A stretch of DNA of 61,554 bases, filler included, from Thermodesulfobacteriota bacterium (lineage in GTDB: Bacteria; DASVDK01): assembly GCA_036381125.1 (NCBI GenBank). It is 6 parts of 6 records of this genome, joined end to end, with 100 filler letters (N's around TTAATTAATTAA, not from the genome) between each part and the next. Parts side by side here need not be neighbours in the genome. Positions count along the whole stretch, not along the records: positions 24,549 to 49,022 come from DASVDK010000362.1; 5 more parts are not named here. One strand, given 5' to 3'. Numbering within the stretch: position 1 is the first letter of the stretch; every line of letters starts with the position of its first letter. Positions 24,549-55,533 of this stretch are shown here, piece after piece. The notes beneath the pieces are model-generated. The model was not told the DNA's origin. It saw nothing but the letters and a program-made list of their open reading frames with translations, and searched no databases. The position numbers and the translations under genes are program-made.

Positions 24549-25467
24549 CTCGCTCGAGGTGGCCGCGGGGGAGATCTGCGTGCTGATCGGGCCGTCCGGC
24601 TCCGGCAAGACGACCACGATGCGGATGATCAACCGGCTCGAGCTGCCGACGGCCGGGCGCATCACGGTCGGCGGGCGGGACATCGCGGCGCTCGACGACG
24701 TCGAACTGCGGCGCGGGATCGGCTACGTGATCCAGCAGGTCGGGCTCTTCCCGCACATGACCGTGGCGGACAACGTGGCGATCGTGCCGCGCCTGCTCGA
24801 GTGGCCGGCCGACAGGCGGCGCCGCCGCGCCGAGGAGCTCCTCGAGCTGGTCGGCCTCGAGCCCGCGCGGTTCGCGGATCGCTATCCGCGGCAGCTCTCG
24901 GGGGGGCAACAGCAACGGGTCGGCGTCGCGCGGGCGCTGGCGGCCGACCCGCCGATCGTCCTGATGGACGAGCCGTTCGGCGCGGTCGATCCGATCACGC
25001 GCAAGCAGCTCCAGTGGGAGCTCCGGCGAATCCAGGCCGAGGTGCACAAGACGATCGTCTTCGTCACGCACGACATCGGCGAGGCGTTCCTGCTCGGCGA
25101 CCGGATCGTGCTCATGGCCGACGGCCGGATCGTGCAGCACGGCGCACCCCACGACCTGCTTCGCCGTCCCGAGGACCCGTTCGTGACCAGCTTCATCGGC
25201 GAGAACCGGGCCGCGGGGATGCTCCAGTACACGACCCTCGCGGAGCTGGCCCGGCCGGCGACCGAGGGCCCGCGGCCGGGCGTGGAAGCCCTTCCGGCGA
25301 CGCTCTCGGTGCTCGACGCGCTCAGGCGGCTCGGCCGGCGCCCGGACGAGGCCGGGGACGCCATCTGGGTGGCCGACCCGGCGGGCGGGCCGGCCGGCCG
25401 CCTCACCTACCGGGACCTCGTCGTCGCGATCGGCGAGGCGATGGCGGACGATGCGCTACCTCGTTGA
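24549..25467 (+). CDS. Osmoprotectant-type (OpuC/OsmV-like) ABC ATPase (5' truncated)
   Basis: GPSGSGKTT, LRRGIGYVIQQVGLFPH, LSGGQQQRVGVARALAADP, LMDEPFGAVDP. Confidence 0.92.
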
Positions 25468-26086
25468 GCACCCGCAGCGCGTGCTCGAGCTCGCGCTGCA
25501 GCACCTCGAGATCGTCGCCGCCTCCGTCCTGGTCGCCGTCCTCATCGGCGTGCCGGTGGGCGTCCTCGTGACGCGCCTGCGGTGGCTCGAGGGGCCGGTC
25601 ATGCACGTCGCCGGCGTCCTCTACACCGTCCCGAGTCTCGCCCTCTTCGCGGTGCTCATTCCCTTCACGGGGCTCGGCGCGCGGCCGGCGATCGTCGCGC
25701 TGATCCTCTACTCCCTGCTCGCGATCATCCGCAACACCGTGGCCGGGATCGATGCCGTCGACCCCGCGACGCTCGAGGCGGCACGGGGCATGGGCATGAC
25801 CGGCACCCAGCGCCTCTTGCTCGTCGAGCTGCCGCTCGGGCTTCCGATCATCCTGGCCGGCGTGCGCCTCGCCGCCGTGGCGGCCATCGGGATCGCGACC
25901 GTGGCGGCGTACGTGGGCGCCGGCGGCCTCGGCCTGCTCATCTTCGACGGCCTGCGCACCCTCGACGCGGACCGCGTGCTCGGCGGCGCCCTGGCGACGT
26001 CGGCCATGGCGCTCGCCGTCGACGCCGGCCTGGCCCGGCTCGGCGGCAGGCGCCGCGAGGACACCGCGCAGGCGACCGGCGGCTGA
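25451..26086 (+). CDS. Osmoprotectant-type ABC permease
   Basis: YTVPSLALF, EAARGMGM, VELPLGLP, GAGGLG. Confidence 0.93.
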   Translation: MRYLVEHPQRVLELALQHLEIVAASVLVAVLIGVPVGVLVTRLRWLEGPVMHVAGVLYTVPSLALFAVLIPFTGLGARPAIVALILYSLLAIIRNTVAGIDAVDPATLEAARGMGMTGTQRLLLVELPLGLPIILAGVRLAAVAAIGIATVAAYVGAGGLGLLIFDGLRTLDADRVLGGALATSAMALAVDAGLARLGGRRREDTAQATGG

Positions 26087-26097
26087 GGAGATTCCCG

Positions 26098-26754
26098 ATG
26101 GGCAACCCGTTCGGCTTCGTGGCCTACATCCTGGAACACCCCGAGAGCTTCCTCGAGCTACTCCGGCAGCACGTCGAGCTGACCGCCCTGTCGGTCCTCT
26201 TCGGCGTCCTCGCCGCCCTCCCGCTCGCGGTCCTGGCCAGTCGCATCAACGCGCTGGCCGGCCCGATGACGTGGCTCGCCGGCGTCGGCCAGACGATCCC
26301 GAGCCTCGCCATCCTCGCCCTCGTCCTGCCGTTCCTCGGCATCGGGTTCGCGCCGTCGCTCTTCGCGCTGACGATCCGCGCGCTCCTGCCGATCTTCCTG
26401 AACGCCTACGTCGGCATCCGCGGCGTCGACAAGGCCGCGATCGAGGCGGCGCGCGGGATGGGCATGAACGGCGCCGAGCGGCTCTTCCTCGTGGAGCTCC
26501 CGCTGGCGGTCCCGGTCATCCTGGCCGGCGTCCAGACCGCGACGGTCCAGAACGTCGGGGTCGCCACGCTCGCGGCCTTCATCGGCGGCGGGGGACTCGG
26601 TGACCTGATCCTCCAGGGGCTCGCCATGGTCGACACGCCGGTGCTCCTCGCCGGCGCCGTGCCGGTCGCGCTGCTCGCGATGCTGGCCGACGTCGGGATG
26701 CGGCGCATCGGCCGCCTGCTCACGCCGGGCGGCCTGCGGGCGGCGCGCGCATGA
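26098..26754 (+). CDS. Osmoprotectant-type ABC permease (second)
   Basis: GQTIPSLAIL, EAARGMGM, VELPLAVP, GGGGLG; GAGGAG RBS. Confidence 0.93.
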   Translation: MGNPFGFVAYILEHPESFLELLRQHVELTALSVLFGVLAALPLAVLASRINALAGPMTWLAGVGQTIPSLAILALVLPFLGIGFAPSLFALTIRALLPIFLNAYVGIRGVDKAAIEAARGMGMNGAERLFLVELPLAVPVILAGVQTATVQNVGVATLAAFIGGGGLGDLILQGLAMVDTPVLLAGAVPVALLAMLADVGMRRIGRLLTPGGLRAARA

Positions 26755-28130
26755 GCGCGGGAGCCCGGACGCGTCGGGTCGCGCAGTTCGCGCGCGACGT
26801 CCGCTGGGCCGATCTGCCCGCGGCCGTGCAGGCACAGGCGGTTCGCTGCCTGCTGGACCTCTGCGGCTCGGCGGTCGCCGGCAGCCTCACCCCGGTCGCC
26901 CGGATCGCCGCCGCGTACGCCCGGGCGGCGCACGGCCCGGGCGGGGCGACCATCATCGGCGCCGACAGCGGCAGCACACCGGTCGGCGCGGCGCTCGCCA
27001 ACGGCTTCGCCGCCTCGGCGCTCGACATCGACGACGGCTACCGCCCCGTCAAGGGGCATCCGGGCGCGGTCGTCCTGCCCGCCGTCCTCGCGGCCGCCGA
27101 GCAGGCCCGCGCGAGCGGCTCCGAGTTCCTGACGGCGCTCGTCGTCGCCTACGAGGTCGCCATGCGCGCCGGACGCATCCTGCACCCGCTCTACGGCTTC
27201 TACCACGGCACCGGGGCCTGGGGGCCGGTCGGCGCGGCGGCCGGCGCGGCGCGCCTCCTCCGCCTCACGCCCGACGAGACCTGGCACGCGCTCGGCATCG
27301 CCGAGTTCCACGCGGCGATGACCCCCGAGATGCGGTCGGTCGACCACCCGAGCATGCTCAAGGACGGCATCGGGTGGGGCGCCATGGTCGGGCTCGCCTC
27401 CGTCGGGCTCGCGGCCGCGGGCTTCACCGGGATCCCGAGCCTCTTCGACGCCGGGCCCGAGGGCGCCGCGCTCTGCGAGAGCCTTGGCCGCGACTACCTG
27501 GTCCTGGATCTCTACTTCAAGCCGTACCCCTGTTGCCGGTGGGCGCAGCCGGCGGTCGAAGGGGCGCTCGCGGCCGCGCGTGCCCTGGGCGTGCGGGGCG
27601 ACGAGATTGCCCGGGTCACGGTGTACACGTTCGAGGCGGCGACCCACCTGCGCGCCGTCGCGCCCCGGACCACCGAGGAGGCGCAGTTCAGCCTCCCCTG
27701 GCCGGTCGCCTGCGCGCTCCTCGGCGGCACCGTCGGGCCTGCCGACGTGCTCGGCGCCGCCCTCGAGGATGCCGCCCGCCGCCGGCTCGCGGCCCGCGTG
27801 GCGATCGTCGAGGAGCCGGAACTCTCCCGGCAGTTCCCGGCGCGGGCCCTGGCCCGGGTCGAGGTCGAGACGGCCGACGGCCGCCGCGCCCGCTCCGGCG
27901 TGGTCGCCGCGCGCGGCGACGCCGACGCCCCGCCCGCCGACGCCGAACTGCGGGAGAAGTTCCATCGCCTCGCCGACCCCGTCCTCGGGACCTCCGGCGC
28001 GCGTTCGCTCGCGGCCGCGGTCGAGGACCTGCCCGGGGCCGAGAGCCTGGACCGTCTCCTCGAACGGCTCCGCGTTCCTGCGCCGGCTCCATCGGGCGGC
28101 GCCCCACTCGCTACCAGGAGGTTGCCGTGA
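26751..28130 (+). CDS. MmgE/PrpD family protein (copy 1)
   Basis: ALANG...LDIDDG...GHPGAVVLPA, YHGTG, FKPYPCC, AQFSLPW. Confidence 0.92.
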   Translation: MSAGARTRRVAQFARDVRWADLPAAVQAQAVRCLLDLCGSAVAGSLTPVARIAAAYARAAHGPGGATIIGADSGSTPVGAALANGFAASALDIDDGYRPVKGHPGAVVLPAVLAAAEQARASGSEFLTALVVAYEVAMRAGRILHPLYGFYHGTGAWGPVGAAAGAARLLRLTPDETWHALGIAEFHAAMTPEMRSVDHPSMLKDGIGWGAMVGLASVGLAAAGFTGIPSLFDAGPEGAALCESLGRDYLVLDLYFKPYPCCRWAQPAVEGALAAARALGVRGDEIARVTVYTFEAATHLRAVAPRTTEEAQFSLPWPVACALLGGTVGPADVLGAALEDAARRRLAARVAIVEEPELSRQFPARALARVEVETADGRRARSGVVAARGDADAPPADAELREKFHRLADPVLGTSGARSLAAAVEDLPGAESLDRLLERLRVPAPAPSGGAPLATRRLP

Positions 28131-29032
28131 TGAACCATCGGACGCTCCTCGCCGCGCTCGTGGCTGCCCTCCTCGCGGCCGCCGCGCTCCTTGCGCCGAC
28201 CGCCGACGCCGGTCAGGCCGGGAAGACGGTCACGGTCGGCTCCAAGAACTTCACCGAGCAGCTCATCGTGGGCCAGATGGTTGCCGCGCTGCTCGAGCAC
28301 GCGGGCTACCAGGTCGATCGCAAGCTGAACCTCGGCGGCACCGCGGTGGTGCACCAGGCGCTCGTCAGCGGCGACGTCGACGTGTACGTCGAGTACACGG
28401 GGACCGGCCTCACGGCGCTGCTCAAGCTTCCCGTGCAGACCGACCCGGAGCAGGTGTTCCGCACCGTCAAGAAGGAGTACGAGAGCCGCTTCAAGGCCAC
28501 CTGGCTCGAACCCTGGGGCTTCAACAACACCTACGCGCTCGCGATGCGGGCGGACAGGGCCAGGGCGCTCGGCGTGAGGACGATCGCCGACCTCGAGGAC
28601 AAGGCGCAGGATCTCACGTTCGGCGGGACGCAGGAGTTCATCACCCGGCCGGACGGCCTGCCCGGCATCGAGAAGACGTACGGCCTCAAGTTCAAGCAGG
28701 CGCGCGGGATGGACTTCGGCATCATGTACCAGGCCGTCGCCTCCGGCCAGGTCGACGTCGCCTCCGCCTTCGCCACCGACGGCCGCATCGCCGCGCTCGA
28801 CCTCGTGACGCTCGAGGACGACCGGCGGTTCTTCCCGCCCTACTACGCCGCCCCGGTCGTCCGGCAGGAGGTCATCGGCAGGGACCCGAGGATCGCCGAG
28901 GTCCTCAACACGCTCGCCGGCAAGGTCGACGACGACACGATGCGCAGGCTGAACGCCCAGGTGGATCAGGAGAAGAAGGAGCCGGCGGACGTGGCCCGCG
29001 CCTTCCTCAAGGAGCGGGGCTACATCAACTGA
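28130..29032 (+). CDS. Glycine betaine/OpuAC-family ABC substrate-binding protein
   Basis: Signal peptide; VGSKNFTEQ, YVEYTGT, GFNNTYA, RPDG, LEDDRRFFPPY. Confidence 0.93.
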   Translation: MNHRTLLAALVAALLAAAALLAPTADAGQAGKTVTVGSKNFTEQLIVGQMVAALLEHAGYQVDRKLNLGGTAVVHQALVSGDVDVYVEYTGTGLTALLKLPVQTDPEQVFRTVKKEYESRFKATWLEPWGFNNTYALAMRADRARALGVRTIADLEDKAQDLTFGGTQEFITRPDGLPGIEKTYGLKFKQARGMDFGIMYQAVASGQVDVASAFATDGRIAALDLVTLEDDRRFFPPYYAAPVVRQEVIGRDPRIAEVLNTLAGKVDDDTMRRLNAQVDQEKKEPADVARAFLKERGYIN

Positions 29033-30771: not shown

Positions 30772-31530
30772 TCAGAACGCGAAGCGCCGCAACCCGCCGT
30801 CCACGTGGATCACCTCGCCCGTGATGTAGCCCGCCCTGGGCGAGGCCAGGAAGGCGACGAGGTGCGCCACGTCCCGGGGCTCGCCGAAGTGGCCGAGCGG
30901 GATGTTGGCCTTCGCGAACGCCTCCCGATCCTCGGGCGTCGGGTGGAGGCGCTCGACGATCTGCTCGCTCATGATCCGGCCGGGCGGGATGGAGTTGACG
31001 GTGATGCCGTAGGGGCCGACCTCCCGCGAGAGGCCCTTGGCCCAGGCGTGCACCGCCGCCTTCGCGGCGTTGGCGGCGTTCATCCCCCGGGGCTCGGACG
31101 AGCCGGTGATGTTGACGATCCGGCCCCATCGGTGCTGGCGCATGGAGGGGAGAAGCGCGTGCGTGAGCCGCCGCAACGCCACGAAGTTGACGGCGAAGGC
31201 CTCCGTCCACTGCTCCTCGGTGGCGTCGACCGGCAGCGGGCGCGAGCCGCCCGCGCTGTTCACGAGGATGTCGGCGCGCCCGAACGCGCCGAGGACGCGG
31301 TCGCGGACGAGCGTGTGGGCGTCCGGCGTGCCGAGGTCCACCGCAACGACGAGCGGGCGGGGCGCTCCGGAGGCGGCGAGGTCGTCCGCGAGTCGCTCGA
31401 GGCGCTCGGCGCGTCGCGCCACGACGGCGAGCTGCACCCCTTCGGCCGCCAGCACCTCGGCGACCGCGTGCCCGATGCCCGCGCTCGCCCCGGTCACGAC
31501 CGCTACCCGACCACGTAGCTCCAGGTCCAC
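30772..31530 (-). CDS. Short-chain dehydrogenase/reductase (atypical: catalytic Tyr absent, A-N-A-A-K in place of YxxxK)
   Basis: VTGASAGIG, LVNSAGG, ITVNSIPPGRI, YITGEVIHVDGG; AGGAGG RBS before GTG. Confidence 0.88.
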   Translation of the reverse strand: MDLELRGRVAVVTGASAGIGHAVAEVLAAEGVQLAVVARRAERLERLADDLAASGAPRPLVVAVDLGTPDAHTLVRDRVLGAFGRADILVNSAGGSRPLPVDATEEQWTEAFAVNFVALRRLTHALLPSMRQHRWGRIVNITGSSEPRGMNAANAAKAAVHAWAKGLSREVGPYGITVNSIPPGRIMSEQIVERLHPTPEDREAFAKANIPLGHFGEPRDVAHLVAFLASPRAGYITGEVIHVDGGLRRFAF

Positions 31531-31531
31531 G

Positions 31532-32977
31532 TCACCGCCCTCCTGCCGCGGTCCCGCCCGCGGCCTCGTGCCATGGTCGATCGACCCCTTCCCGGCGCAG
31601 GCCTCCGAGCAGCTCGGCGACGGCGCCGGCCGACAGCGTCTCGATGCGCGCGAGCGCCTCGAGCGTGCGCGACACCCCGGCCGGCCCGAGGAGGAGGCCG
31701 AGGCACCCGCGAGCCTTGTCCGCGAGGAGACGCCCCTCGATCGGCCTGCCCCAGATGCCGGGCGGCCCATCGCACCGGCGCTCGAGCGACCGGCCGTCGG
31801 CGAGGGTGACCTCGACCCGCACGTGCATCCGGTCGAAGCGGCCCTCGATGGCCGGGTCCTGGACCAGCTCGGTGCGGGCGAGCAGGCGCTCCATGTCGTC
31901 CGCGAAGCGGCGGGCGTCGGTGAAGCTCTCGATCCCCACCCGCCCGTCGAGCAGCGCGACGGCGGCCGCGTACTGGAAGCTGAACTTCCCCGCCAGGCCG
32001 CCGGCCGGCCTCGGCCGATCGACGTACGGCATGACGGGGGTGGTGATGCGCACCCGCTCGATGCCGGCGCCCGGCGGCAGCGCGGCGTGCAGGTCGAGCG
32101 CGGCGGCGATGGCGAAGTGCGTGCCGTACTGGCTCGGGAACACCTTGAAGGCGGGCCCCGGGTCGACGACGTGCAGCGTCTCGACCGGCGCGACGAGGCG
32201 CGACGGGTCGAAGGCCTCGCCGAAGAACGCGTAGCCGAAGCCGCGGCGGCCGGCCAGGGCGTCGGGGTCGGCGGTGAACCCGCGGCCGGCGAGGAGGGCG
32301 GCGTCGAGCCCCGCGGCCGCGGCGTCGCCGCAGTGGAGCCCCTTGGTCATGCTGCCGACGTTGACCAGCACCGCCCCGGCCCGCGACGCGGCGATCCCGA
32401 GGGCGTGCGCGAGCCGCTCGGCGTCGAGCCCGAGGAGCACGGCGCTCGCCGCGGCGGCGCCGAGGGGGCCGACCACGCCCGGCGGATGGAACGTGAGCTG
32501 TGCGGGCTCGTACTGGCCCGACGCGAGCCGCAGCCGCGCCTGCGCCTCGATGCCGACGGCCAGCGCGAGGAGGAGCCGCTCGCCGTCGGGGACCGCCCGC
32601 GCCGCCGGCCCCGGCAGCTCGACGCCGCGCGACAGGGTCTCGCCGAGGGCGAGGATCGCCGGCAGCGTGGTGGAGACGGCGTGGTTGGGCGGGTTCCACA
32701 TCGGCTCCCAGTCGAGGACGTGCATCGCCGCCCCGTTCGTCCGGGCGGCGGCGACCGGGTCGGTGCGGAAGCCCTGGCCGATGACGGTGGCGACCGGCGC
32801 GCCGCCGGCGGCGGCGGCCTGCGCCGCCAGGAGGCGCGGCCCCTCCTCGAGGCTGCCGGCCGCGGCGATGGCGACGCCGTCGACCACGAGATCGCGGCAC
32901 GTCGCGCGCTCGGCGTCGGTCAGCCCGCGGGCGGCGACGGTGAGGAGCAGCCGGGCGAAGTCCGCCGTCAGGCTCAT
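31532..32977 (-). CDS. MmgE/PrpD family protein with ACOD1/IRG1 (cis-aconitate decarboxylase)-like motifs (copy 2)
   Basis: HVLDWEPMWNPPNH, FHPPGVVG, TKGLH, AFKVFPSQYGTH, PYVDRPRP, FSFQY, GIWGRP. Confidence 0.88.
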   Translation of the reverse strand: MSLTADFARLLLTVAARGLTDAERATCRDLVVDGVAIAAAGSLEEGPRLLAAQAAAAGGAPVATVIGQGFRTDPVAAARTNGAAMHVLDWEPMWNPPNHAVSTTLPAILALGETLSRGVELPGPAARAVPDGERLLLALAVGIEAQARLRLASGQYEPAQLTFHPPGVVGPLGAAAASAVLLGLDAERLAHALGIAASRAGAVLVNVGSMTKGLHCGDAAAAGLDAALLAGRGFTADPDALAGRRGFGYAFFGEAFDPSRLVAPVETLHVVDPGPAFKVFPSQYGTHFAIAAALDLHAALPPGAGIERVRITTPVMPYVDRPRPAGGLAGKFSFQYAAAVALLDGRVGIESFTDARRFADDMERLLARTELVQDPAIEGRFDRMHVRVEVTLADGRSLERRCDGPPGIWGRPIEGRLLADKARGCLGLLLGPAGVSRTLEALARIETLSAGAVAELLGGLRREGVDRPWHEAAGGTAAGGR

Positions 32978-34347
32978 GCCGCCGGCCGCTCGAGAAGCCC
33001 GAGGAGGTCGCCGGCGGACCACCGGTCGAGGTCGCCGACGGCGGCCTCGACGCGCCCCGCCCCCGCCTCGCCGAGGATCGGCGCGGCCAGCGCCCGGAAC
33101 TTCGCGCGCAGGGCGGCGTCGCGGCCGGGGTTGGCCGGCGACCCGGACGGGTCGAGCACGTCGACGCGACGGAACCGGCCGGGCGCCTCCTCGATCTCGA
33201 CCCAGCCGGCGAAGCGGCCGGGATAGATCGCGTCGAGCGCCGGGTCGTGGACCACCTCGATCGACTCGGCCAGGGCGGTGACGGTCCGGTCGGCGATGCG
33301 GTCGGGCGCGAACTGCCGCGGCAGGACCGCGCCGTCGGCGAGCGCCACGGCCACGCAGTAGCGGAGGCTCATCTGGGCGTTGAGGGCGGTGCCGGGGCGG
33401 TAGGGGTAGCCGCACTGGACGTCCACCACGCGGGCGACGCCGGCGCGCACGCGCGCCCCGGGCCGGTAGCTCCCCCGGAGGGCGAGCGCGGCGTCGATGT
33501 GGGGGTGCACGCTGCCGCAGCACGAGTACGGCTTGAAGGTCGTCTCGGCGGCGTGCCAGGCGGCGCCGAGACCGCCGACGAGGCGCCCCGGATCCGAGTG
33601 GTCGGAGAAGGCCTCGAGGAGCCCGCCGTCGGCCGCCTCGTACACGCTGGTCGGCCCGGTGAAGCCGAGCGCGGCGAGCTCCGCCGCGAGGACGCCCGAC
33701 TGCGCGGACCGCCCGGGATGGAACCGCTTGCTCATCGACCCGTCGGCGTTGAAGGCGAAGAGGCCGGCGGACTGGGTGCCGGCGAGGCCGAGCGCCCACG
33801 CGGTCCGCTCCGCGTCGAAGCCGAGGAGGATGGCCGCCGCCGCCGCCGCGCCGAACGTGCCGCAGACGCCGGTCAGGTGCCAGCCGCGCAGGCGGGCGTG
33901 CGACGGCTCGAGGGCGAGCGCCGTGCGGATCATCACCTCGTAGCCGGCGACGATGGCCGTCTCGAGCCGCTCCCCCCCGGCGCCGTACGCCTCCGCCGTG
34001 GCGAGCGCCGCCGGGACGACGACCGCGCCGGGGTGGAGCTTCGCGTTGTGGAAGTCGTCCAGCTCGAAGGCGTGGGCGGCGACGCCGTTGACCAGCGCGG
34101 CGTCGCTCGGGCGCAGGTTGCCGCGGCCGCTCCCCCACCGGCGGGCCAGCGGCGCCTCGCCGCCGGGCGCCCACCGCGACGCCCAGTCGGCGACGATCCC
34201 GGTCCACGGCTGGTCCATGCCGGCGAGGCCGACGCCGAGCGTGTCGAGGACGAAGAGGCGGACGGCGCGGCGGACCGGCTCCGGGACGTCCTCGTGCCGC
34301 AGCCCGGCCAGCCAGCCGGCGACGGTCCTCGTGACCCCCTCGCTCAC
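32974..34347 (-). CDS. MmgE/PrpD family protein (copy 3)
   Basis: AHAFELDDFH...LHPGAVV, GWHLTG, SKRFHPG, FKPYSCC, AQMSLRY; GTG start overlaps the prpF stop. Confidence 0.92.
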   Translation of the reverse strand: MSEGVTRTVAGWLAGLRHEDVPEPVRRAVRLFVLDTLGVGLAGMDQPWTGIVADWASRWAPGGEAPLARRWGSGRGNLRPSDAALVNGVAAHAFELDDFHNAKLHPGAVVVPAALATAEAYGAGGERLETAIVAGYEVMIRTALALEPSHARLRGWHLTGVCGTFGAAAAAAILLGFDAERTAWALGLAGTQSAGLFAFNADGSMSKRFHPGRSAQSGVLAAELAALGFTGPTSVYEAADGGLLEAFSDHSDPGRLVGGLGAAWHAAETTFKPYSCCGSVHPHIDAALALRGSYRPGARVRAGVARVVDVQCGYPYRPGTALNAQMSLRYCVAVALADGAVLPRQFAPDRIADRTVTALAESIEVVHDPALDAIYPGRFAGWVEIEEAPGRFRRVDVLDPSGSPANPGRDAALRAKFRALAAPILGEAGAGRVEAAVGDLDRWSAGDLLGLLERPAA

Positions 34348-35519
34348 GCGGCGACTCCCGACCGGCGGTAGAACACGTAGCCCTCGAAGAGCCGGCGCGC
34401 GGTGCGGTAGACCGTGGCGTACTCGGCCCTGAAGCCGGCGCCGGGCCCCCCCGCCCCGTTGCGCGTGACCGCCGCGTTCACGACGGTGACCCCCGACGCG
34501 TGCGCGATCCGGATGTCCGCATCCGGCCTGGCCGGCGGGGCGGCCAGCTCGTGGGGGAGGCTCCCCTCGATGCGCGTCGCGACGGCGAGGCACATGGCGC
34601 CGGTCAGCGGCACGGCCCGGTGGGGCTGGCCGATGGAGATCATCCGCACGGCGATGTCCATGTCCTCGGGCGCGAGCGTCCGCCCCGACAGCGTCGTGGC
34701 CGGCCGCGGCGCCGCCACCATCGCCACCTTGGGCACGCTCGGGATCGCCCGCGCGCGCTCCGGGTCGGGCGCGAGCCCCATGGCCACCGATGCGGCGCAG
34801 CGGATGGCCTCGAGGCGCGCCATCCGCTCGCGGTCCCGCTCCAGCGCCTCGGGGGCCTCGCTGCCGTCGCACCCCAGGTCCGACGCCGCGACGAAGACGC
34901 AGGGGTTGGCGGCGTCGACGAGGCTCGCCCGGACGCGGCCGACGCCGGCGACCTCGAGGACGTCCACCGGCCGGCCGGTCGGCAGGAGCCGGCCCGTCTT
35001 CGCGCCGCCGGGGTCGGTGAAGTCGAGCCGGATCGGCGCCCCCGCCCCGGCGACGCCGTCCAGCACGAAGTCGCCGTCGACGGCCGCCCGGTCCCCCTCC
35101 AGGTCGAAGCGGGCGACGATGATCTTCCGCGTGTTGGTGTTGTGGATCCGGACCGTCGCCCGTCGGCCGGTCGCCCGGACGATCCCCTCGTCGACGCTGA
35201 ACGGGCCGATCGCCGACGACATGTTCCCGCAGTTGCCGCTGTAGTCGACCGATGCCTCCCGGACCGACACCTGGCCGAACGTGTAGTCGACGTCGGCGTC
35301 CGGCCGGCTCGGCGGGCCGACGATGCAGACCTTCGAGAGCGACGAGATGCCGCCCCCCATGCCGTCGAGCTGCCGCCCGTTCGGATCGGGCGAGCCCATG
35401 GCGGCGAGGAAGAGCCGGTCCCGGGCCGCCGCGTCGGCCGGGAGGTCCTCGGCGCGGAAGACGATGCCCTTCGATGTCCCGCCGCGCATGAAGACGGCGC
35501 GGACCTTCCCCTGCGCCAC
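34344..35519 (-). CDS. prpF: PrpF/FldA family isomerase (aconitate isomerase / 4-oxalomesaconate tautomerase-like)
   Basis: MRGGTSKG, QLDGMGGGISSLSK, GNCGNMSSA, HRAVPLTG, RTARRLFEG. Confidence 0.9.
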   Translation of the reverse strand: MAQGKVRAVFMRGGTSKGIVFRAEDLPADAAARDRLFLAAMGSPDPNGRQLDGMGGGISSLSKVCIVGPPSRPDADVDYTFGQVSVREASVDYSGNCGNMSSAIGPFSVDEGIVRATGRRATVRIHNTNTRKIIVARFDLEGDRAAVDGDFVLDGVAGAGAPIRLDFTDPGGAKTGRLLPTGRPVDVLEVAGVGRVRASLVDAANPCVFVAASDLGCDGSEAPEALERDRERMARLEAIRCAASVAMGLAPDPERARAIPSVPKVAMVAAPRPATTLSGRTLAPEDMDIAVRMISIGQPHRAVPLTGAMCLAVATRIEGSLPHELAAPPARPDADIRIAHASGVTVVNAAVTRNGAGGPGAGFRAEYATVYRTARRLFEGYVFYRRSGVAA

Positions 35520-35529
35520 GTCGGTCCCC

Positions 35530-37026
35530 CTAGCCGCGCGCGAGGCGGGCGGCCGAGGCGCCCGCGAGGCGCCCGAAGACGGCGCCCGAGGTGAGGCCGG
35601 TCCCGCCCGGGTAGTTGTAGTGGAAGATGTTGCCGACCATCTCGCCGCAGGCGAAGAGCCCCGTGATGGGACGCCAGCCGGTGTCGAGCACCCGCGCCTG
35701 GTCGTCGATCTTGAGGCCGCCGAACGAGAAGGTGATGCCGCCGGTGCAGGGATAGCAGACGAACGGCGGGGTGTCGAGCCGCTGGGCCCAGTTGGACTTG
35801 GGCGGCGTGAGCCCCTTCGTGCACATGCCGTCGAGGATGCCCGGATTGAACGTCCCGTGGCCGGCCGCCGCGTTGTACTCGTCGAGCGTCCGGCGGGCCG
35901 TCGCGCGGTCGATCGGCAGCTTCTCGAGCAACCCGTCGAGGGTGTCGGCCACGATCGGCTCGCTCGTGGCGTAGCGCCCCTCGAGCAGGTGCACGACCTT
36001 CTGGTCGAAGATCTGGTAGGCGACCGAGTCCGGCTGGTTCAGGATGATGCCGCCGAACTTCGCGTAGGTGAAGAACTGGAAGTCCTCCGCCTCGTCGACG
36101 AACCGGAGGCCCGCCTTGTTGAGCATCACGCCGTAGGGGTACGAGAGCCGGTTCGTCTTGTCGGTCAGCTCCGACACGCCGTACGGAGGGCTGTCGGCGT
36201 TGATGGGGGTGGCGTGGCAGCCGCTCCACTGGCCGATCGGCATCGCGCCGATCTCGAGCGCCATGCGCAGGCCGTCGCCCTGGTTGTGCCGCGTGCCGCG
36301 CACCTTGGCGTGATCCCAGGGCCGGCCGAGGTACTGGGCGCGCCAGGCCTGGTTCGCCTCGAAGCCGCCGCAGCCGAGCACGACGGCCCGCGCCGGGATC
36401 GTCTCGATCCCCGCCGGGCCCTGGACCTCGATGCCGCGGACGTGGCCGGCGGCGTCCTGCACGAGGCGGCTCGCCCGGCTGTCGTAGCGGATCTCGACCC
36501 CCTTCGACTCGGCGATCGCGAACCACGAGCGCGACAGGCCGACCCCCTCGTGCACCGCGCGGATCACGGCCCCCTTCGGCCACTTGATCTTGCCGTCCAC
36601 CTTGACGCCGCCGAGCGAGACGGCCGGCTCCATCTCGATGCCGAGGCCGGCCATCCAGCGGACCGTGGCGTAGGAGTTGCCGATCAGGATGCCGGACAGC
36701 TCCGGGTCGGAGCGGCCGTTGGTGACCCGCAGGAGGTCCTCCCGGAACGCCGACGCCGGGTAGGTCTCGATCCCCTCGAGGAAGCCCTCGAGCTTCGCGG
36801 CGCTCGGGCACACCTCGAGGATCTGGTCGACGGAGTCGTAGGCGAAGCGCAGGAGGCCGCCGCTGAAGTGCGTGTTGCCGCCGCGCGCCTCGCGCGGCGC
36901 CTTCTCGAGCACCAGCACGCGGGCCGCCCCGCTCTCCTTCGCCGATACCGCTGCCGCCAGCGCCGCGTTGCCGGCGCCCACGACGACCACGTCGTACGCC
37001 TTCCCCTTCGATGCCCGTCCGCTCAC
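35530..37026 (-). CDS. tcuA: TcuA-like FAD-dependent tricarballylate dehydrogenase family flavoprotein
   Basis: YDVVVVGAGNAAL.AA, RGGNTHF, GGFEAN, YLGRPWDHAKVRGT..N.GDG, GGITFSFGGL, YPGGTGLTSGAVFG; family-level call. Confidence 0.85.
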   Translation of the reverse strand: MSGRASKGKAYDVVVVGAGNAALAAAVSAKESGAARVLVLEKAPREARGGNTHFSGGLLRFAYDSVDQILEVCPSAAKLEGFLEGIETYPASAFREDLLRVTNGRSDPELSGILIGNSYATVRWMAGLGIEMEPAVSLGGVKVDGKIKWPKGAVIRAVHEGVGLSRSWFAIAESKGVEIRYDSRASRLVQDAAGHVRGIEVQGPAGIETIPARAVVLGCGGFEANQAWRAQYLGRPWDHAKVRGTRHNQGDGLRMALEIGAMPIGQWSGCHATPINADSPPYGVSELTDKTNRLSYPYGVMLNKAGLRFVDEAEDFQFFTYAKFGGIILNQPDSVAYQIFDQKVVHLLEGRYATSEPIVADTLDGLLEKLPIDRATARRTLDEYNAAAGHGTFNPGILDGMCTKGLTPPKSNWAQRLDTPPFVCYPCTGGITFSFGGLKIDDQARVLDTGWRPITGLFACGEMVGNIFHYNYPGGTGLTSGAVFGRLAGASAARLARG

Positions 37027-37303
37027 CGCAACCCTCTCCTCAGTCGTGTCCTGGATCCGACCACTTCTCGAGCATTCGCGCCCACGCGGCAGCGCGCCGT
37101 GCGGCCGCTCGACGCGGTTCGCACGTCCCGCCCCGCCGGCCGGCCTCGGCAACGGCCGCCGCCCGGTCCGTCCTCGAGCTCGCGGTCCCGCGGACGGCTC
37201 CGCAGAACCGCATGGCGGACGCGGCCCGGCCTCACCTGCGAGGCGCGCGACTGCGCCCCGACTCGCCCGGAATTCCGCTTGACCTTACCATGCGAATGAC
37301 GTT

Positions 37304-37342
37304 TCATACAAGAACGTATACTCGCGTATCCGCCTGTATACA
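37304..37342. promoter_or_regulatory. Cluster of GntR(FadR/FCD)-type operator-like sites in the divergent intergenic region
   Basis: TCATACAAGA(37304), CGTATACT(37315), palindromic TGTATACA(37335-37342) in an AT-rich patch downstream of TTGACC(37279). Confidence 0.55.
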
Positions 37343-37687
37343 CTTGAGCATGGAGGCGTGTGGCCGGAACGACACGCAAGCGGCGAGCCCGTCGCGTCCG
37401 GAGTTCTCGTACCGCGCTCGACGCGACGCGGCCATCCCGGCACGGGCTCGGGGCTCCCGGTCCGACGCGAAGGCGGAGAGGGTGAGCCGAGACGGGGCGA
37501 ACCGCCGGCACCCGATCTCGTGTCGCCGCGTGCGGCGGCGAGTCGGCGACGCGACGATGGACGCCCCCGACACCGACCCCGGCCGAGCCCCCCGTGGCCT
37601 CCTCGTGCGACGGCTCGACCCGCCGGCGCCGGAGCGCCCGGCCGGCGGGGGCCGCATCGGGGACTTCTGCTTCTCGGGCACGAAGCG

Positions 37688-37882
37688 ATGAGCGAAGCCG
37701 AAACGAAGCGACTGGCGAGCGCGGCAGGGCTCGCGAGACTGGATGCTCGCCACCTGGACCAGCTCGCCAGGAGCATCGACAAGAGCCGCTCGCATACGAG
37801 CCGGCTGCCGAAGGACCTGGCCTGGAACGAGGAGGTCGCCTTCACGTTCCGACCTCGCCCCAACCTCAGGACGAACCGGTGA
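37688..37882 (+). CDS. Small (64 aa) putative amidase partner protein (AtzG/GatC-like)
   Basis: LASAAGL..L...HL.QL...LP.DL.WNEE.AFTF pattern; stop overlaps the amidase GTG (GTGA). Confidence 0.55.
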   Translation: MSEAETKRLASAAGLARLDARHLDQLARSIDKSRSHTSRLPKDLAWNEEVAFTFRPRPNLRTNR

Positions 37883-39279
37883 CCGAACTGGCCTTCGTCG
37901 GCGTCGCTCGCGCGGCCGAGATGATCCGGGCGAAGGAGCTGTCGCCGGTCGAGTATACGCAGCAGCTCCTCGCCCGGATCGACCGGATCGATGCGCGGCT
38001 GCACGCGTTCCTGAGCGTCTGTGCGGATCGCGCGCTCGCCGCGGCCCGAGAGGCGGAGCGCGAGATCATGGCCGGCGCCTACCGCGGGCCTCTGCACGGC
38101 GTCCCGTTCGCGCTGAAGGACGTCATCGATGCGGCCGGACTGAGGACCACCGCGCATTCGAGGCTCCTGAGGGAGAACGTCGCTGCGGAGGACGCCTTCG
38201 TCACGTCCCGGCTGCGCGCGGCCGGGGCCGTGCTCCTCGGAAAGCTGTCGACCCACGAGTTCGCCATCGGCGGTCCATCCTTCGACCTGCCCTGGCCGCC
38301 CGCCGTCAATCCGTGGGGTACGCGGCGCTTTCCGGGAGGATCGTCGAGCGGCTCCGGCGTCGCGGTGGCCGCGGGACTGGTGCCCGCATCGCTCGGCACG
38401 GACACGGCCGGATCGATCCGGAATCCCGCGTCGATGTGCGGCGTGACCGGCATGAAGCCGACGTACGGACTCGTCAGTCGACGCGGCGTCTTCCCGCTGG
38501 CCTATTCGCTCGATCACGTCGGCCCGATCACCCGCTCCGTCGAGGACAACGCGCTGGTGCTCCAGGCCATCGCGGGCCACGACCCGGGGGACCCCGGCAG
38601 CGCGTCGGTCGCGGTGCCCGATTACTCGGCCGACCTGCACCGCGGCGTGGCGGGCGTTCGGATCGGGCTGGTGCGCCACTTCTACACGGAAGACGCCGAG
38701 CCGGCGGACCGGGAACAGATCGCCGCCATCGATGCCGCGGTGGCCGTCTTCCGGGATCTCGGGGCCGAGGTCAGGGAGGTCCGGCTCCCTCCCCTTTCCG
38801 ATTTCGCGACCTGTGCCCGGATCATCCTGAGCTCCGAGGCATTCGCGATCCATCGAGGCTGGCTGGCGGCTCGCGCGGACGAGTACGGCGAGCTCGCGCG
38901 GGCCCGCATCCTCGAAGGGGCCGGCGTCACGGCCGCGGACTACATCGACGCGCAGCGCTTGCGCACGCGCCTGTGCCGTCTGACGCAGGACGCCATGGCG
39001 GACGTCGACGTGTGCGTAACCGCCTCCAGCTTCGACCCGGCGTGCGAGATCGACGACCCGGCGGCCATCGCCCGCGCGTATCCGCGCCAGGCCCGTCAGC
39101 CGTTCAACGTGACGGGGCAGCCGGCGATCGCGATACCGTGCGGCTTCACGAAGGACGGACTGCCGCTCTCGTTGCAGATCGTCGGGCATCCGTTCGAGGA
39201 AGCGACCGTGTACCGCGTCGCTCACGCGTACGAGCGTGCAACCCGTTGGATCGACCGGCATCCGCCGTGTGAGGCGTGA
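37879..39279 (+). CDS. Amidase signature family protein (GatA/AtzE-like)
   Basis: GPLHGVPFALKD, GGSSSGS, GTDTAGSIRNPA, SLDHVGP. Confidence 0.94.
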   Translation: MTELAFVGVARAAEMIRAKELSPVEYTQQLLARIDRIDARLHAFLSVCADRALAAAREAEREIMAGAYRGPLHGVPFALKDVIDAAGLRTTAHSRLLRENVAAEDAFVTSRLRAAGAVLLGKLSTHEFAIGGPSFDLPWPPAVNPWGTRRFPGGSSSGSGVAVAAGLVPASLGTDTAGSIRNPASMCGVTGMKPTYGLVSRRGVFPLAYSLDHVGPITRSVEDNALVLQAIAGHDPGDPGSASVAVPDYSADLHRGVAGVRIGLVRHFYTEDAEPADREQIAAIDAAVAVFRDLGAEVREVRLPPLSDFATCARIILSSEAFAIHRGWLAARADEYGELARARILEGAGVTAADYIDAQRLRTRLCRLTQDAMADVDVCVTASSFDPACEIDDPAAIARAYPRQARQPFNVTGQPAIAIPCGFTKDGLPLSLQIVGHPFEEATVYRVAHAYERATRWIDRHPPCEA

Positions 39280-39352
39280 CCCGATTCGAACAAACGGTCT
39301 CACGGGTACGTCGGATCGGGACCACCTGCCGCATCCCGAAGAGAGAGGACCG

Positions 39353-40351
39353 ATGAGAAAGCCCAGGATCGCCGTGATCGGCACGGGAGGAACGATCTCG
39401 TCCATCTCGGACCATTCCCTCGAGGTGCTCGACTATCCCGAGACGGGCCGGAAGATGGAGCCTGCGGAGGCGATCGAGCGGGTGCCCGAGGCCGCCCGCT
39501 TCGCCGACCTGGTTCCGCTCTCGTTTCGCGCCGTCGGCAGCACCAGGATATCGCCGCCCGACTGGATCGAGCTTGCGCAGCTCATCATGAGGACGGCGCG
39601 CGAGGAGGCCGACGTGCGCGGCTTCGTGGTCCTACACGGCACGGCGACCCTCGAGGAGACCGCGTACTTCCTGAACCTGGTGCTCAAGACCGACAGGCCC
39701 GTGGTTCTCGTCGGCGCCCAACGGCCGGCGAGCGCCGTCAGCTCGGACGTCGGCATGAACCTGGTCTCCGCCGTGCGGACGGCCGGCGATCCTCAGGCGG
39801 TCGGAAAGGGCGTGCTGGTGGTTCTGAACGACGAGATCCACAGCGCCCGGGATGCGAGCAAGACCTCCACGTATCGGCTGCAGACCTTTCGGAGCCGGGA
39901 CGTCGGGGTGCTGGGCCACGTGGACGGGGACGGCGTGTATTTCTACCGCTCTCCCCTGCGGCGGCACACGCTGACCTCGGTCTTCGACATTGCCGACGTG
40001 ACGGCGCTGCCGCGCGTCGACATCGTCTACTCGTACGCGGGCGCCGACGGCTGCGCCGTCGACGCCTTCGTTGCCGCGGGAGCGCGGGGGCTCGTGTCCG
40101 CGGGCCTGCCCCCGGGGCTCACGGCACCGCTCGAGCGGGCCGCCCTGGAGCGGGCGGCGCAGGCCGGCGTCCTGATCGTGCAGTCGAGCCGGGCCGGAAG
40201 CGGCCGCGTGGCCCGACGCACCTATCTCAAAGAGCACGCCATGGTGGCCGCGGACAATCTCAACCCGCAGAAGGCGAGGATCCTTCTGTCGCTTGCCCTG
40301 ACGAGGTCGAGTGATGCCGACCAGGTGCAGGAGCTCTTCGATACCCACTGA
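39353..40351 (+). CDS. L-asparaginase/glutaminase family protein
   Basis: IGTGGTIS, HGTATLEETAYFL, VGAQRP, NLNPQKARILL. Confidence 0.93.
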   Translation: MRKPRIAVIGTGGTISSISDHSLEVLDYPETGRKMEPAEAIERVPEAARFADLVPLSFRAVGSTRISPPDWIELAQLIMRTAREEADVRGFVVLHGTATLEETAYFLNLVLKTDRPVVLVGAQRPASAVSSDVGMNLVSAVRTAGDPQAVGKGVLVVLNDEIHSARDASKTSTYRLQTFRSRDVGVLGHVDGDGVYFYRSPLRRHTLTSVFDIADVTALPRVDIVYSYAGADGCAVDAFVAAGARGLVSAGLPPGLTAPLERAALERAAQAGVLIVQSSRAGSGRVARRTYLKEHAMVAADNLNPQKARILLSLALTRSSDADQVQELFDTH

Positions 40352-40562
40352 TCGGACGGCCCCTGGTCTCGCCGAACGCGCGGCGCCGCGCCGCCGGCAT
40401 CGCGCCGGCGCGGGCAGGCACTGGCCCTCGACCGTCGCCATGGATGCCCGTCGGGGCAGCTCGGAACACGTGGACGTCCAGGTCACGGGTGGAGATCCAC
40501 GCGTCACGAAGAACCGGCCGTCGATGAACCGGCCTCTTGGAAACCGTCATCGGGAGAGAACG

Positions 40563-41555
40563 ATGAGACACTTCGCCGCACGCGCAACAGGGATTGTCGC
40601 CGCCGCTCTGATGCTCGCCTGGGCCGGACCCTCGTTGGCGCAGGACTACCCCAGCCGGGACATCACCTTCATCGTCCCGTTCAACCCCGGCGGCTCCACC
40701 GACCCACTGTCGCGAGCCTTCGCGGCTCAACTGGAGAAGACCCTTCCCGGCAACATCAACGTCGAGAACAGGCCGGGCGGGTCGGCCACCATCGGCACCA
40801 ACCTGGTCGTGCGCGCGAACCCGGACGGCTACACGATCGGGCTCGGCGACAGCGCCGCGCTGACCTATCAGCCGCTCGTCAACACCGGGCTCGCCTACAA
40901 GACCCCCGATGATTACCAGATCATCACGAAGCTGGCCGACGTCCCGGGCATGCTGCTCGTCCGCACGGAGGCTCCCTGGAAGACCTTCGACGATTTCATG
41001 GCCGACGTGAGGCGGAGGCCGGGCAAGATCCGGGTCGGCGTGTCGGGAGTGCGGTCGATCGCCGACCTCGTCGTCCAGCAGCTCAACCGGTCCGCCGGCG
41101 TCAAGATCGCCACGGTCCCGTTCACCGGCGGCGGAGGCGAAGCGTTGCTGGCGCTCCTGGGCGGCCGGATCGAGGCGGCGGTCGGGTACGGCGGAAACTC
41201 GATGGCCCAGGTCAATGCGGGCAAGCTCAGGGTCCTGGGGGTTTTCGCGAAGGGGAAGTACCCCCTCGCTCCGGACGCGACGTCCATCCCCGACGCGGGC
41301 TTCGACGCCACCCTGCCGGCCAGCTACACCGTGATCGCGCCCAAGGGCCTGCCGAAGGACATCCTGGACAGGCTCACGGAGGCCTCCAGGAAGGCCATGG
41401 AGAGCCGGGAGTTTCTGGCCTTTGCCGAGAAGAACGGCTTCGTGGTCGATCCCAAGGGCCCGGAGGAGGCGGTGGCCGAGCTTCGCGAGTTCGGCAAGGA
41501 GTTCGCCAGCCTCATCGAGTGGCTGGATCGGATCGAGGCGGGTGCTGCCAGGTGA
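40563..41555 (+). CDS. tctC: Tripartite tricarboxylate transporter substrate-binding protein (TctC/Bug)
   Basis: Signal peptide, YPSRDITFIVPFNPGGSTD, VENRPGG, PDGYTI. Confidence 0.93.
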   Translation: MRHFAARATGIVAAALMLAWAGPSLAQDYPSRDITFIVPFNPGGSTDPLSRAFAAQLEKTLPGNINVENRPGGSATIGTNLVVRANPDGYTIGLGDSAALTYQPLVNTGLAYKTPDDYQIITKLADVPGMLLVRTEAPWKTFDDFMADVRRRPGKIRVGVSGVRSIADLVVQQLNRSAGVKIATVPFTGGGGEALLALLGGRIEAAVGYGGNSMAQVNAGKLRVLGVFAKGKYPLAPDATSIPDAGFDATLPASYTVIAPKGLPKDILDRLTEASRKAMESREFLAFAEKNGFVVDPKGPEEAVAELREFGKEFASLIEWLDRIEAGAAR

Positions 41556-42025
41556 GCGGCGCTCCCGTTCGGAAGCGCACGGGGTACCTCGCCATAGGCG
41601 GAATCGGCGTGCTGCTCGCCGCCGCCTACCTCGGCATGGCGTTGCAGATGCCGTTCGGACGGTTGAGCCAGCCCGGGGCGGCGGTGTTCCCGCTCATCGT
41701 CGGTGGTTTGCTCGTGGTGGGCAGTCTGGCGACGATCTGGGAAGGCTGGAAGACAGGACCCGCCGAGCGGGTCGAGTTTCCGGCCGGAGCGGATCGCGCC
41801 CGCCTGCTCGGGGTCGTCGGGTTGCTGCTGGGCTACTTCGTGGCCCTACCGTGGCTCGGTCAGCTGCTCAGCAGCACCCTCTTCTGCATCCTGCTCATGC
41901 GTCTGCTGTCGAGCCTCGCGTGGCCGCGCGTGGCCCTGTACTCGATCCTCATCACGGGGACCCTGTACGCGGTGTTCATCCACCTGCTCGGGGTCCCGAT
42001 GCCGCGCGGTGTGCTGGCCGGATAA
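41552..42025 (+). CDS. tctB: TTT small membrane subunit TctB
   Basis: PGAAVFP, 4 TM, VFIHLLGVPMPRG. Confidence 0.88.
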   Translation: MSGAPVRKRTGYLAIGGIGVLLAAAYLGMALQMPFGRLSQPGAAVFPLIVGGLLVVGSLATIWEGWKTGPAERVEFPAGADRARLLGVVGLLLGYFVALPWLGQLLSSTLFCILLMRLLSSLAWPRVALYSILITGTLYAVFIHLLGVPMPRGVLAG

Positions 42026-44718: not shown

Positions 44719-44755
44719 GCCAACACGAGCTGGTGAAGCAGAGGAGGGCTCTTCC

Positions 44756-47642: not shown

Positions 47643-47673
47643 CGGCGGGAACGGACCACGCGTCGAGGTCGGC

Positions 47674-53970: not shown

Positions 53971-54070
53971 NNNNNNNNNNNNNNNNNNNNNNNNNNNNNN
54001 NNNNNNNNNNNNNNTTAATTAATTAANNNNNNNNNNNNNNNNNNNNNNNNNNNNNNNNNNNNNNNNNNNN
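53971..54070. other. Artificial contig spacer
   Basis: N44-TTAATTAATTAA-N44. Confidence 0.99.
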
Positions 54071-55507: not shown

Positions 55508-55533
55508 GCACTCAACCCAAGGAGGCATGCCGC

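Follow-up and report, generated by a model that had tools for sequence, protein, structure and literature searches.

Tricarballylate use in Salmonella enterica is encoded by tcuRABC, in which the flavoprotein TcuA has an Fe-S/haem partner, TcuB, and the lower part of nicotinate fermentation in Eubacterium barkeri comprises 3-methylitaconate isomerase (Mii), dimethylmaleate hydratase and dimethylmalate lyase. Relatives of proteins from both systems are joined in the locus described here, a five-gene operon at positions 30772-37026 of a 61.5-kb window, the whole stretch of DNA that was analysed, which consists of joined records of a Thermodesulfobacteriota bacterium assembly (GCA_036381125.1). 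The operon encodes a TcuA-like flavoprotein, a PrpF-superfamily isomerase, two MmgE/PrpD paralogues, termed C and D, and a short-chain dehydrogenase/reductase (SDR); D resembles the animal cis-aconitate decarboxylase (CAD), ACOD1/IRG1. Together with the divergent genes beside it, the operon may form a catabolic regulon that extends over 30.8-48.8 kb, is controlled by a GntR/FCD regulator and serves a substituted-succinate or tricarballylate/aconitate-like acid, a scheme that as a whole is put forward tentatively, at somewhat less than an even chance. The enzyme families are all known already; what seems not to have been described before, in the literature searched, is their combination, the TcuB-less TcuA subfamily, a candidate operator and the catabolic surroundings of the IRG1-like clade.

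The NCBIfam models NF006130, TIGR02485 and TIGR02484 served as proxies for Salmonella tcuRABC. With that system the TcuA-like protein shares the flavoprotein family and the overall architecture, and it passes NF006130, but it fails TIGR02485, carries extra insertions, has no adjoining tcuB and in other genomes is partnered by an MmgE/PrpD protein of epimerase type. Likeness to the E. barkeri route lies in the PrpF-like isomerase, which is nearest to Mii, and in a lyase of the phosphoenolpyruvate mutase/isocitrate lyase (PEP-mutase/ICL) family directly upstream of PrpF-D in other genomes, whereas the E. barkeri hydratase belongs to the aconitase family and the middle steps here would fall to MmgE/PrpD proteins, with no methyleneglutarate mutase. 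D has the MmgE/PrpD fold of animal ACOD1/IRG1 and of Aspergillus terreus CadA, and CAD is its nearest solved structure; it differs at the positions of Thr97 and His277, in the loop that reads DFDDTWHP in CAD and in its bacterial, catabolic context, and is known from sequence.

In the itaconate route of Ustilago maydis, the PrpF-family aconitate isomerase Adi1 acts with the trans-aconitate decarboxylase Tad1 (PMC4720413). The coupling of a PrpF-family isomerase to an aconitate decarboxylation step would be common to both loci, but Tad1 is described as having a fold of adenylosuccinate-lyase type (IRG1 preprint), and the fungal route is biosynthetic and includes exporters. The itaconate-methylsuccinate cluster of Pseudomonas and Cupriavidus also has an MmgE/PrpD enzyme acting on a free substituted succinate with a dehydrogenase alongside (PMC12290011, PMC9875883, PMC13491972); as outlined in those sources it depends on coenzyme A (CoA; Ict, Ich, Ccl and an acyl-CoA dehydrogenase), whereas the present locus has a TcuA-like dehydrogenase and no linked CoA enzymes. 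The Bacillus tarAB/tbrA genes for trans-aconitate assimilation or production likewise combine a PrpF-superfamily aconitate isomerase with a dedicated transporter, but form, in the available text, a two-gene system without MmgE/PrpD or flavoprotein genes (PMC11495376). No paper joining MmgE with TcuA, or the PrpD family with tricarballylate dehydrogenase, was found in the literature searched, and the titles and abstracts of papers on tricarballylate and aconitate decarboxylase reveal no such cluster.

The operon and its enzymes

The G+C content of the window is high (0.68-0.78), and reading frames were judged from lists of open reading frames (ORFs), start-codon context and a GC3 frame plot. 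Families were assigned with Pfam and NCBIfam models, and solved structures were searched for the nearest characterised relatives. For comparison, 80 loci with a D orthologue (L numbers below) were taken from species genomes by a search with an alignment of D and 16 homologues. One of them is a near-identical contig; most of the others belong to Alpha- and Betaproteobacteria, and their identity is 47-61%. The five genes are co-oriented on the minus strand and are separated, in order, by a 10-nt gap, a GTGA overlap, an ATGA overlap and a 1-nt gap:

35530-37026, minus strand: TcuA-like flavoprotein binding flavin adenine dinucleotide (FAD), 498 aa, with a GTG start behind a GAGGAGAGGG stretch
34344-35519, minus strand: PrpF-superfamily isomerase, 391 aa (PF04303)
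32974-34347, minus strand: MmgE/PrpD paralogue C, 457 aa (MmgE_PrpD_N and MmgE_PrpD_C)
31532-32977, minus strand: MmgE/PrpD paralogue D, ACOD1/IRG1-like, 481 aa (MmgE_PrpD_N and MmgE_PrpD_C)
30772-31530, minus strand: SDR-family protein, the last gene of the operon, 252 aa (adh_short_C2)

These coordinates and all four junctions reproduce by ORF analysis the tight, co-oriented arrangement reported in an earlier note on this DNA. The operon is real and its arrangement is beyond chance, because the frames of all five genes are backed by the GC3 plot, the combination recurs elsewhere and the genes are preserved in the nearest genome, G001, with amino-acid identities of 93-95% (D, C and SDR; 94% for the TcuA-like protein).

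The TcuA-like protein belongs to the FAD_binding_2 family and reaches 547.3 bits on NF006130, the TcuA model (cut-off 369), but only 273.7 bits on TIGR02485 (cut-off 372.55), on which its orthologues from the clusters of L019 and L020 score 234 and 260 bits. G001 holds a second, canonical TcuA, which is 41% identical to the TcuA-like protein, scores 708 bits on NF006130 and 618.5 bits on TIGR02485, and lies elsewhere in that genome directly upstream of TcuB (428 bits against a cut-off of 246.6). Profile searches of the window gave no match to TcuB, which occurs at one of the 80 loci, there next to a canonical TcuA. Since the TIGR02485 cut-off is not reached, TcuB is missing from the window and from all loci but one, and G001 carries a separate canonical tcuAB, the cluster flavoprotein is assigned, from its profile scores and gene context, to a distinct, TcuB-independent TcuA subfamily. 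The earlier note had taken it for TcuA itself, converting tricarballylate to cis-aconitate; identification as the canonical tricarballylate dehydrogenase was rejected on the TIGR02485 score, the lack of tcuB and the separate tcuAB of G001, and a paralogue takes its place. Among solved structures the TcuA-like protein is nearest to the flavin domains of flavocytochrome c fumarate reductases, and models of L-aspartate oxidase match it weakly.

The PrpF-like protein matches PF04303 with 391.7 bits across residues 5-383 and stays under both equivalog cut-offs (oxalomesaconate (OMA) tautomerase, 335 against 440; PrpF, TIGR02334, 311.5 against 440.55). Its best solved match is Mii (3g7k; 299.8 bits), followed by PrpF (2pvz; 268.3 bits), so that 3-methylitaconate isomerase is its nearer relative by a small margin. 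Both catalytic residues, a Lys and a Cys that align with Lys62 and Cys96 of Mii, are kept. In the earlier note, SIGQPH in the place of SMG was read as a sign of a non-canonical substrate. The string is present (...RMISIGQPH...), but the significance given to it does not hold: Shewanella oneidensis PrpF has SMGKLHH and Mii has FMQVLHK at the same position, and the motif was rejected as the mark of an unusual PrpF in favour of ordinary subfamily variation.

The best solved-structure matches of D are mouse and human CAD, with 189-197 bits (7br9, 196.6), against 112 bits for iminodisuccinate (IDS) epimerase and 48 bits for E. coli PrpD. In the Atlas, chordate cis-aconitate decarboxylase is the second-nearest large cluster to D, and the ACOD1-like character first proposed for the protein is thus borne out. 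The active site of human CAD (hCAD) comprises Asp93, Thr97, His103, His159, Lys207, Lys272, His277 and Tyr318 (PMC6789909); D keeps six of these eight residues, namely Asp93, His103, His159, Lys207, Lys272 and Tyr318. An alignment of D with 16 homologues (17 sequences) has D89, M93, H99, H164, K212, K278, Q283, Y318 and K331 invariant, and the loop DFDDTWHP of CAD becomes D(W/Y/F)EPMWNP in the D clade. Decarboxylation to an itaconate-type product is plausible from these relationships; that D is a true aconitate-type decarboxylase we consider possible but doubtful. No report of a native bacterial CAD was found in the literature searched, where the phrase "bacterial cad" matched only cadmium and cadaverine senses.

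IDS epimerase is the best match of C (2hp0; 128 bits), of two MmgE/PrpD clusters that recur at D loci, p6 and p8, and of a third paralogue in the window. The epimerase has a catalytic Tyr145 five residues before the conserved His150, and its signature was sought as the motif Y-x-x-G-W-H, which is present in all 32 members of p6 and in none of D (0/81), C (0/6) or p8 (0/23); C has Ala or Arg in the place of the Tyr. In L026, L043, L049 and L058 the gene directly upstream of D is an orthologue of C (63-65% identity). The p6 gene, which scores 222 bits against IDS epimerase, is not in the window; at 21 of the 23 loci that have both, it is adjacent to and co-oriented with the TcuA-like gene (e.g. 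L027, 15474-18494, and L084, 15171-18421), and the two are a candidate epimerase-dehydrogenase pair for a chiral acid. The third MmgE/PrpD gene of the window (26751-28130; 114 bits to IDS epimerase) has an unusual setting for an enzyme, an OpuA-type ATP-binding cassette (ABC) operon at 24559-29032 on the plus strand, with ATPase, permease and OpuAC binding protein.

This pairing bears on a CoA-independent catabolism of branched C5-dicarboxylates (methylsuccinate, itaconate, citraconate and mesaconate), in which MmgE/PrpD proteins would racemise or hydrate, the TcuA-like protein would dehydrogenate methylsuccinate and the Mii-like protein would interconvert itaconate and citraconate. An MmgE/PrpD (S)-(R)-methylsuccinate isomerase has been proven (PMC12290011), the p6 proteins beside the TcuA-like gene keep the epimerase Tyr, and the PrpF-like protein is closest to 3-methylitaconate isomerase. 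The route is nevertheless unlikely: p6 is missing from the window and D has no epimerase Tyr, the transporters described below are of tricarboxylate and polyanion types, and the amidase and asparaginase would be left unexplained.

The SDR keeps the TGASAGIG cofactor motif and the Lys of YxxxK, but, as the earlier note had observed, not the Tyr, which is Ala in an alignment to Vibrio cholerae FabG, so that the classical SDR catalytic set is incomplete. Its orthologue is found at a single locus of the 80, the near-identical contig L006, and the SDR was rejected as a member of the conserved pathway.

Conservation of the gene set and the promoter palindrome

Linkage was counted by tblastn of the window proteins over the 80 loci, with cut-offs of at least 45% identity for the TcuA-like protein, 55% for the PrpF-like protein and 45% for GntR. 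A TcuA-like gene accompanies the D orthologue at 33/80 loci and a PrpF-like gene at 23/80; PrpF stands directly upstream of D and co-oriented with it at 15/80, GntR beside D at 32/80, and orthologues of C, TctA and the amidase occur at five, three and two loci, respectively. The synteny check that had been called for, on tcuA, prpF and ACOD1-like genes, was therefore positive, with all three together at 14/80 loci, and the refuting outcome named with it, a combination absent from other genomes, did not arise. Of the 80 loci, 36 extend for at least 8 kb to each side of D; in these the TcuA-like gene is present in 18, the PrpF-like gene in 16, both in nine and at least one in 25.

Label-free clustering of all ORFs from these loci and the window (81 sources; L001-L004 left out) recovered D in 77 sources, ABC ATPase and ABC permease in 39 each, an ABC substrate-binding protein (SBP) in 38, GntR in 34, the TcuA-like protein in 33 and the PrpF-like protein in 24. 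The MmgE/PrpD clusters p6, p8 and C were found in 32, 23 and six sources; a D-2-hydroxyacid dehydrogenase in 14, an AtuA-like protein in 11, TctC in 10 and Ldh_2 in seven. The unit is thus a variable regulon, not a fixed five-gene operon. L006, whose D is 93% identical in amino acids, is labelled as a Thermodesulfobacteriota metagenome-assembled genome, while the other close homologues are from Alpha- and Betaproteobacteria and the DNA has about 73% G+C; the taxonomic label may be an error of binning or classification.

A PrpB-like PEP-mutase/ICL lyase is present in 10/81 sources, with L005, L007, L009, L018, L024, L036, L041 and L060 among the carriers, and lies directly upstream of PrpF-D in L005 and of D in L041, a diverged look-alike of prpB/prpF/prpD. 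It scores 302 bits on TIGR02317, under the cut-off of 354, and has no counterpart in the window. This arrangement suggests a route resembling the methylcitrate cycle, in which D would serve as a (de)hydratase of PrpD type for an alkyl- or hydroxy-citrate-type acid that has been imported, the PrpF-like protein would isomerise the alkene and the PrpB-like protein would cleave the rehydrated product, with neither decarboxylation nor itaconate. The mirroring of prpB/prpF/prpD at D loci of 10 sources and the two altered hCAD residues of D speak for it. We regard it as rather unlikely, given that D has 196 bits to CAD against 48 to E. coli PrpD, that the window is without a PrpB-like gene and that no AcnD or aconitase-family gene is among the annotated recurrent clusters (clusters in few loci are not all annotated).

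The divergent region upstream of the operon holds a short palindrome:

37335-37342, no strand: TGTATACA palindrome, candidate GntR/FCD operator, between the TcuA-like gene and the amidase operon

With up to one mismatch allowed, this is the single occurrence of the pattern in the whole window. In other genomes, the intergenic regions leading from GntR to PrpF/D contain TGTATACA exactly in 10 of 12 cases and with one mismatch in the other two; all 12 inspected regions have a (G/A)TAT(G/A)C-like repeat a few bases further on, and the flanks of the window site present the same architecture. The palindrome is kept in L086, the corresponding locus of the sister genome. Across the 80 loci (1.25 Mb), 25 exact sites are found in 23 loci, 18 of them between cluster genes and the remaining seven within the 5' ends of over-long ORF calls. 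The promoters concerned are those of PrpF-D, TcuA-like, GntR and SBP genes; upstream of the TcuA-like gene the site occurs in L024, L031, L036, L054 and L084, and further away (about 700 nt) in L076. Judged from sequence, the locus has both marks of a GntR/FCD-regulated catabolic regulon, a regulator with a GntR helix-turn-helix and an FCD domain and a conserved palindrome, the candidate operator, in the promoters of linked genes. The intergenic region itself (37027-37687) is unusually long, at about 660 nt, lower in G+C, and the sole holder of TGTATACA in the window. No Rfam family was found in the window, and scans of 30.4-38.0 kb for sigma-70 promoters and terminators gave no match.

An alternative in which the five genes stand side by side with unconnected functions might be argued from the SDR, which is not conserved, and from the trio being together at only 14/80 loci. 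Start/stop overlaps, adjacency that recurs in Alpha- and Betaproteobacteria and a common promoter palindrome make this highly improbable.

Neighbouring genes

Divergent from the operon, on the plus strand, runs a series of genes for hydrolysis, uptake and regulation that ends with an ABC importer at 48759; Tct denotes subunits of a tripartite tricarboxylate (TTT) transporter:

37688-37882, plus strand: 64-aa ORF, a weak candidate, its stop overlapping the amidase start (GTGA)
37879-39279, plus strand: GatA/AtzE-like amidase of the amidase-signature family, which heads the enzymes of the divergent operon (PF01425, 362 bits)
39236-40351, plus strand: type II-like asparaginase with a provisional start (N- and C-terminal Asparaginase domains; 308.1 bits on TIGR00520, cut-off 314.3)
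40311-41555, plus strand: TctC substrate-binding protein of the TTT transporter, start provisional (homology from about 40590; 65% identity to L046)
41573-42016, plus strand: TctB small membrane subunit (PF07331, 67.9 bits; 52% identity to L035)
42041-43567, plus strand: TctA large membrane subunit (PF01970, 480 bits; 75% identity to L035)
43912-44718, plus strand: GntR/FCD transcription regulator, start between 43693 and 43912 (GntR and FCD domains)
44723-45817, plus strand: ABC SBP of Fe(III)/SBP_bac_6 type, with a checked reading frame and a provisional start (67.5% identity to the recurrent SBP cluster)
45897-47642, plus strand: fused two-domain ABC permease (BPD_transp_1 twice)
47506-48759, plus strand: TOBE-domain ABC ATPase, start provisional (ABC_tran and TOBE_2)

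These uptake and amidase genes around the operon point to catabolism. The amidase is under all equivalog cut-offs; homologues of 49% identity stand beside D in L046 and L079, and in L035, L046 and L079 D again has the amidase/TctCBA module next to it. The best solved match of TctC (2dvz, 148 bits) gives no clue to its ligand, and nor do those of the ABC SBP, which are iron-binding proteins at no more than 96 bits. The 64-aa ORF is 72% identical in L086, against about 80% for the DNA around it; the ORF belongs to no Pfam family, has no significant match in the other 80 loci and could be a small partner of the amidase or non-coding.

The hydrolases raise the question of an aminopolycarboxylate, or an N-substituted aspartate or asparagine (iminodisuccinate-, ethylenediaminedisuccinate (EDDS)- or opine-like), which they would deamidate, MmgE/PrpD proteins would epimerise and the TcuA-like protein would oxidise in the manner of aspartate oxidase. 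In keeping with this, IDS epimerase is the best match for C, p6, p8 and the third paralogue alike, hydrolases of amidase or asparagine type accompany D together with TTT genes in the window, L035, L046 and L079, and the TcuA-like protein has its weak L-aspartate oxidase matches. A PrpF-type alkene isomerase would have no obvious role, D is CAD-like and not epimerase-like, and no C-N lyase turned up, although none was searched for; such a substrate class is decidedly unlikely.

Downstream of the SDR lie a convergent AraC-type gene and a LysE gene, followed by the OpuA-type ABC operon mentioned above. Further along the window, an arginine deiminase and an amino-acid permease are encoded at 49.6-52.2 kb. 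A plus-strand group at 54027-58493 begins with a citrate-binding domain of ATP-citrate-lyase type (54027-54611) and CoA-binding/CoA-ligase domains (54599-55507); the two ORFs overlap by 13 nt and may be a split or frameshifted subunit of a citrate-type CoA ligase. A second TTT transporter follows, with TctC near 55.5-56.4 kb and TctA at 56964-58493. At 58513-61553, a DUF1054 gene and a gene for a UbiA-family prenyltransferase accompany that of a minus-strand type III polyketide synthase (58513-59622), and the three may constitute a small secondary-metabolite set.

Proposed pathway and its meaning for the family

Characterised MmgE/PrpD enzymes (PrpD, CAD, IDS epimerase and methylsuccinate isomerase) act on free acids with a C4-1,4-dicarboxylate substructure, by protonation and deprotonation at C2 (PMC12290011). 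The proposed sequence of reactions follows from combining this substrate rule with the importers, the amidases and the succinate-dehydrogenase-type flavoprotein. Gene order, family membership, the conserved gene set and the common promoter palindrome are what the sequences show, and all substrates and reactions in the scheme are ones we infer. A polycarboxylic acid with a substituted-succinate backbone, tricarballylate/aconitate-like and perhaps in the form of an amide, would be imported and then deamidated. The TcuB-less, FAD-dependent TcuA-like flavoprotein, acting like succinate dehydrogenase, would desaturate the succinyl C2-C3 bond to an aconitate-type alkene, whose double bond would be moved or flipped by the PrpF/Mii-like isomerase. 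By enolate chemistry D would most likely decarboxylate the aconitate-type intermediate to an itaconate-type (methylene-succinate) product, while C may serve as an auxiliary hydratase or isomerase through the enolate chemistry of its family.

Several observations weigh against this pathway. The pairing of the TcuA-like protein with the epimerase-type p6 implies a chiral substrate, and tricarballylate is achiral. cis-Aconitate is an intermediate of the tricarboxylic acid (TCA) cycle, so that decarboxylating plain tricarballylate or aconitate would be pointless or wasteful. The trio is found together at far from all loci, and its presence in only nine of the 36 well-flanked ones indicates that the three genes are not obligatorily linked. 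A PrpB-like lyase beside D in other genomes fits a dehydratase as well as a decarboxylase role for D. The 25 occurrences of TGTATACA compare with 0-17 for each of 11 palindromes of matched composition counted over the same loci, a modest enrichment; it is the location of the sites that carries the argument. Finally, D differs from hCAD at Thr97 (Met93 in D) and His277 (Gln283 in D). Met occupies the first position in 78 of the 81 members of the D cluster, with Leu in one, and Gln the second in 63/81 by strict motif and in 17/17 aligned sequences. The natural hCAD variants Thr97Met and His277Tyr have activity that is abolished or markedly reduced (PMC6789909). Five of six rare hCAD variants are also less stable, so that part of the loss of activity comes through lower stability, and A. 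terreus CAD differs from hCAD at four of the eight active-site residues (PMC6789909). The two substitutions thus lower the prospects of CAD activity in D and, given the A. terreus enzyme, do not exclude it.

Taken at its strongest, the reading of the earlier note would be biosynthetic: fed by TcuA and PrpF, D would be a true cis-aconitate decarboxylase whose itaconate serves as an antimicrobial or a signal. Among bacterial proteins D is the one most closely related to animal IRG1, and many of its orthologues are labelled "aconitate decarboxylase" in one source, as annotation only. Importers with a GntR/FCD regulator are, however, a typical catabolic layout, no exporter is linked, Thr97 and His277 have become Met and Gln, and the literature searched holds no report of a native bacterial CAD; biosynthesis of itaconate is very unlikely. 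Of the pathway once proposed, from tricarboxylate through aconitate to itaconate, there survive the functional unit, the conserved trio, now with a shared palindrome, and the ACOD1-like nature of D, whereas TcuA has no TcuB, D is changed at Thr97 and His277, the setting is catabolic and the SDR is not conserved.

For the catabolic scheme preferred here, the wider consequence concerns the MmgE/PrpD family, most members of which are uncharacterised (PMC12290011), and IRG1, for which the origin is given as unknown and the nearest clade as alphaproteobacterial (IRG1 preprint). The D clade might comprise the first bacterial aconitate-type decarboxylases and the prokaryotic stock of animal IRG1, with a native role that would be catabolic, CoA-independent and GntR-controlled, in which imported substituted tricarboxylates or their amides would be degraded via itaconate-type intermediates by TcuA-like, Mii-like and several MmgE/PrpD enzymes; this we propose with low confidence. 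The IRG1-related bacterial clade is now placed in a defined, regulator-controlled gene set with named partners (the TcuA-like and Mii-like proteins, binding proteins, the regulator and a candidate operator), and it has cultured carriers in Bosea, Microvirga, Humitalea, Zwartia and Paraburkholderia, which together open the ancestral function of IRG1 to direct testing. A new CoA-independent breakdown of polycarboxylates in soil and freshwater bacteria may come to light through these genes, as may new enzymes for making itaconate-type chemicals.

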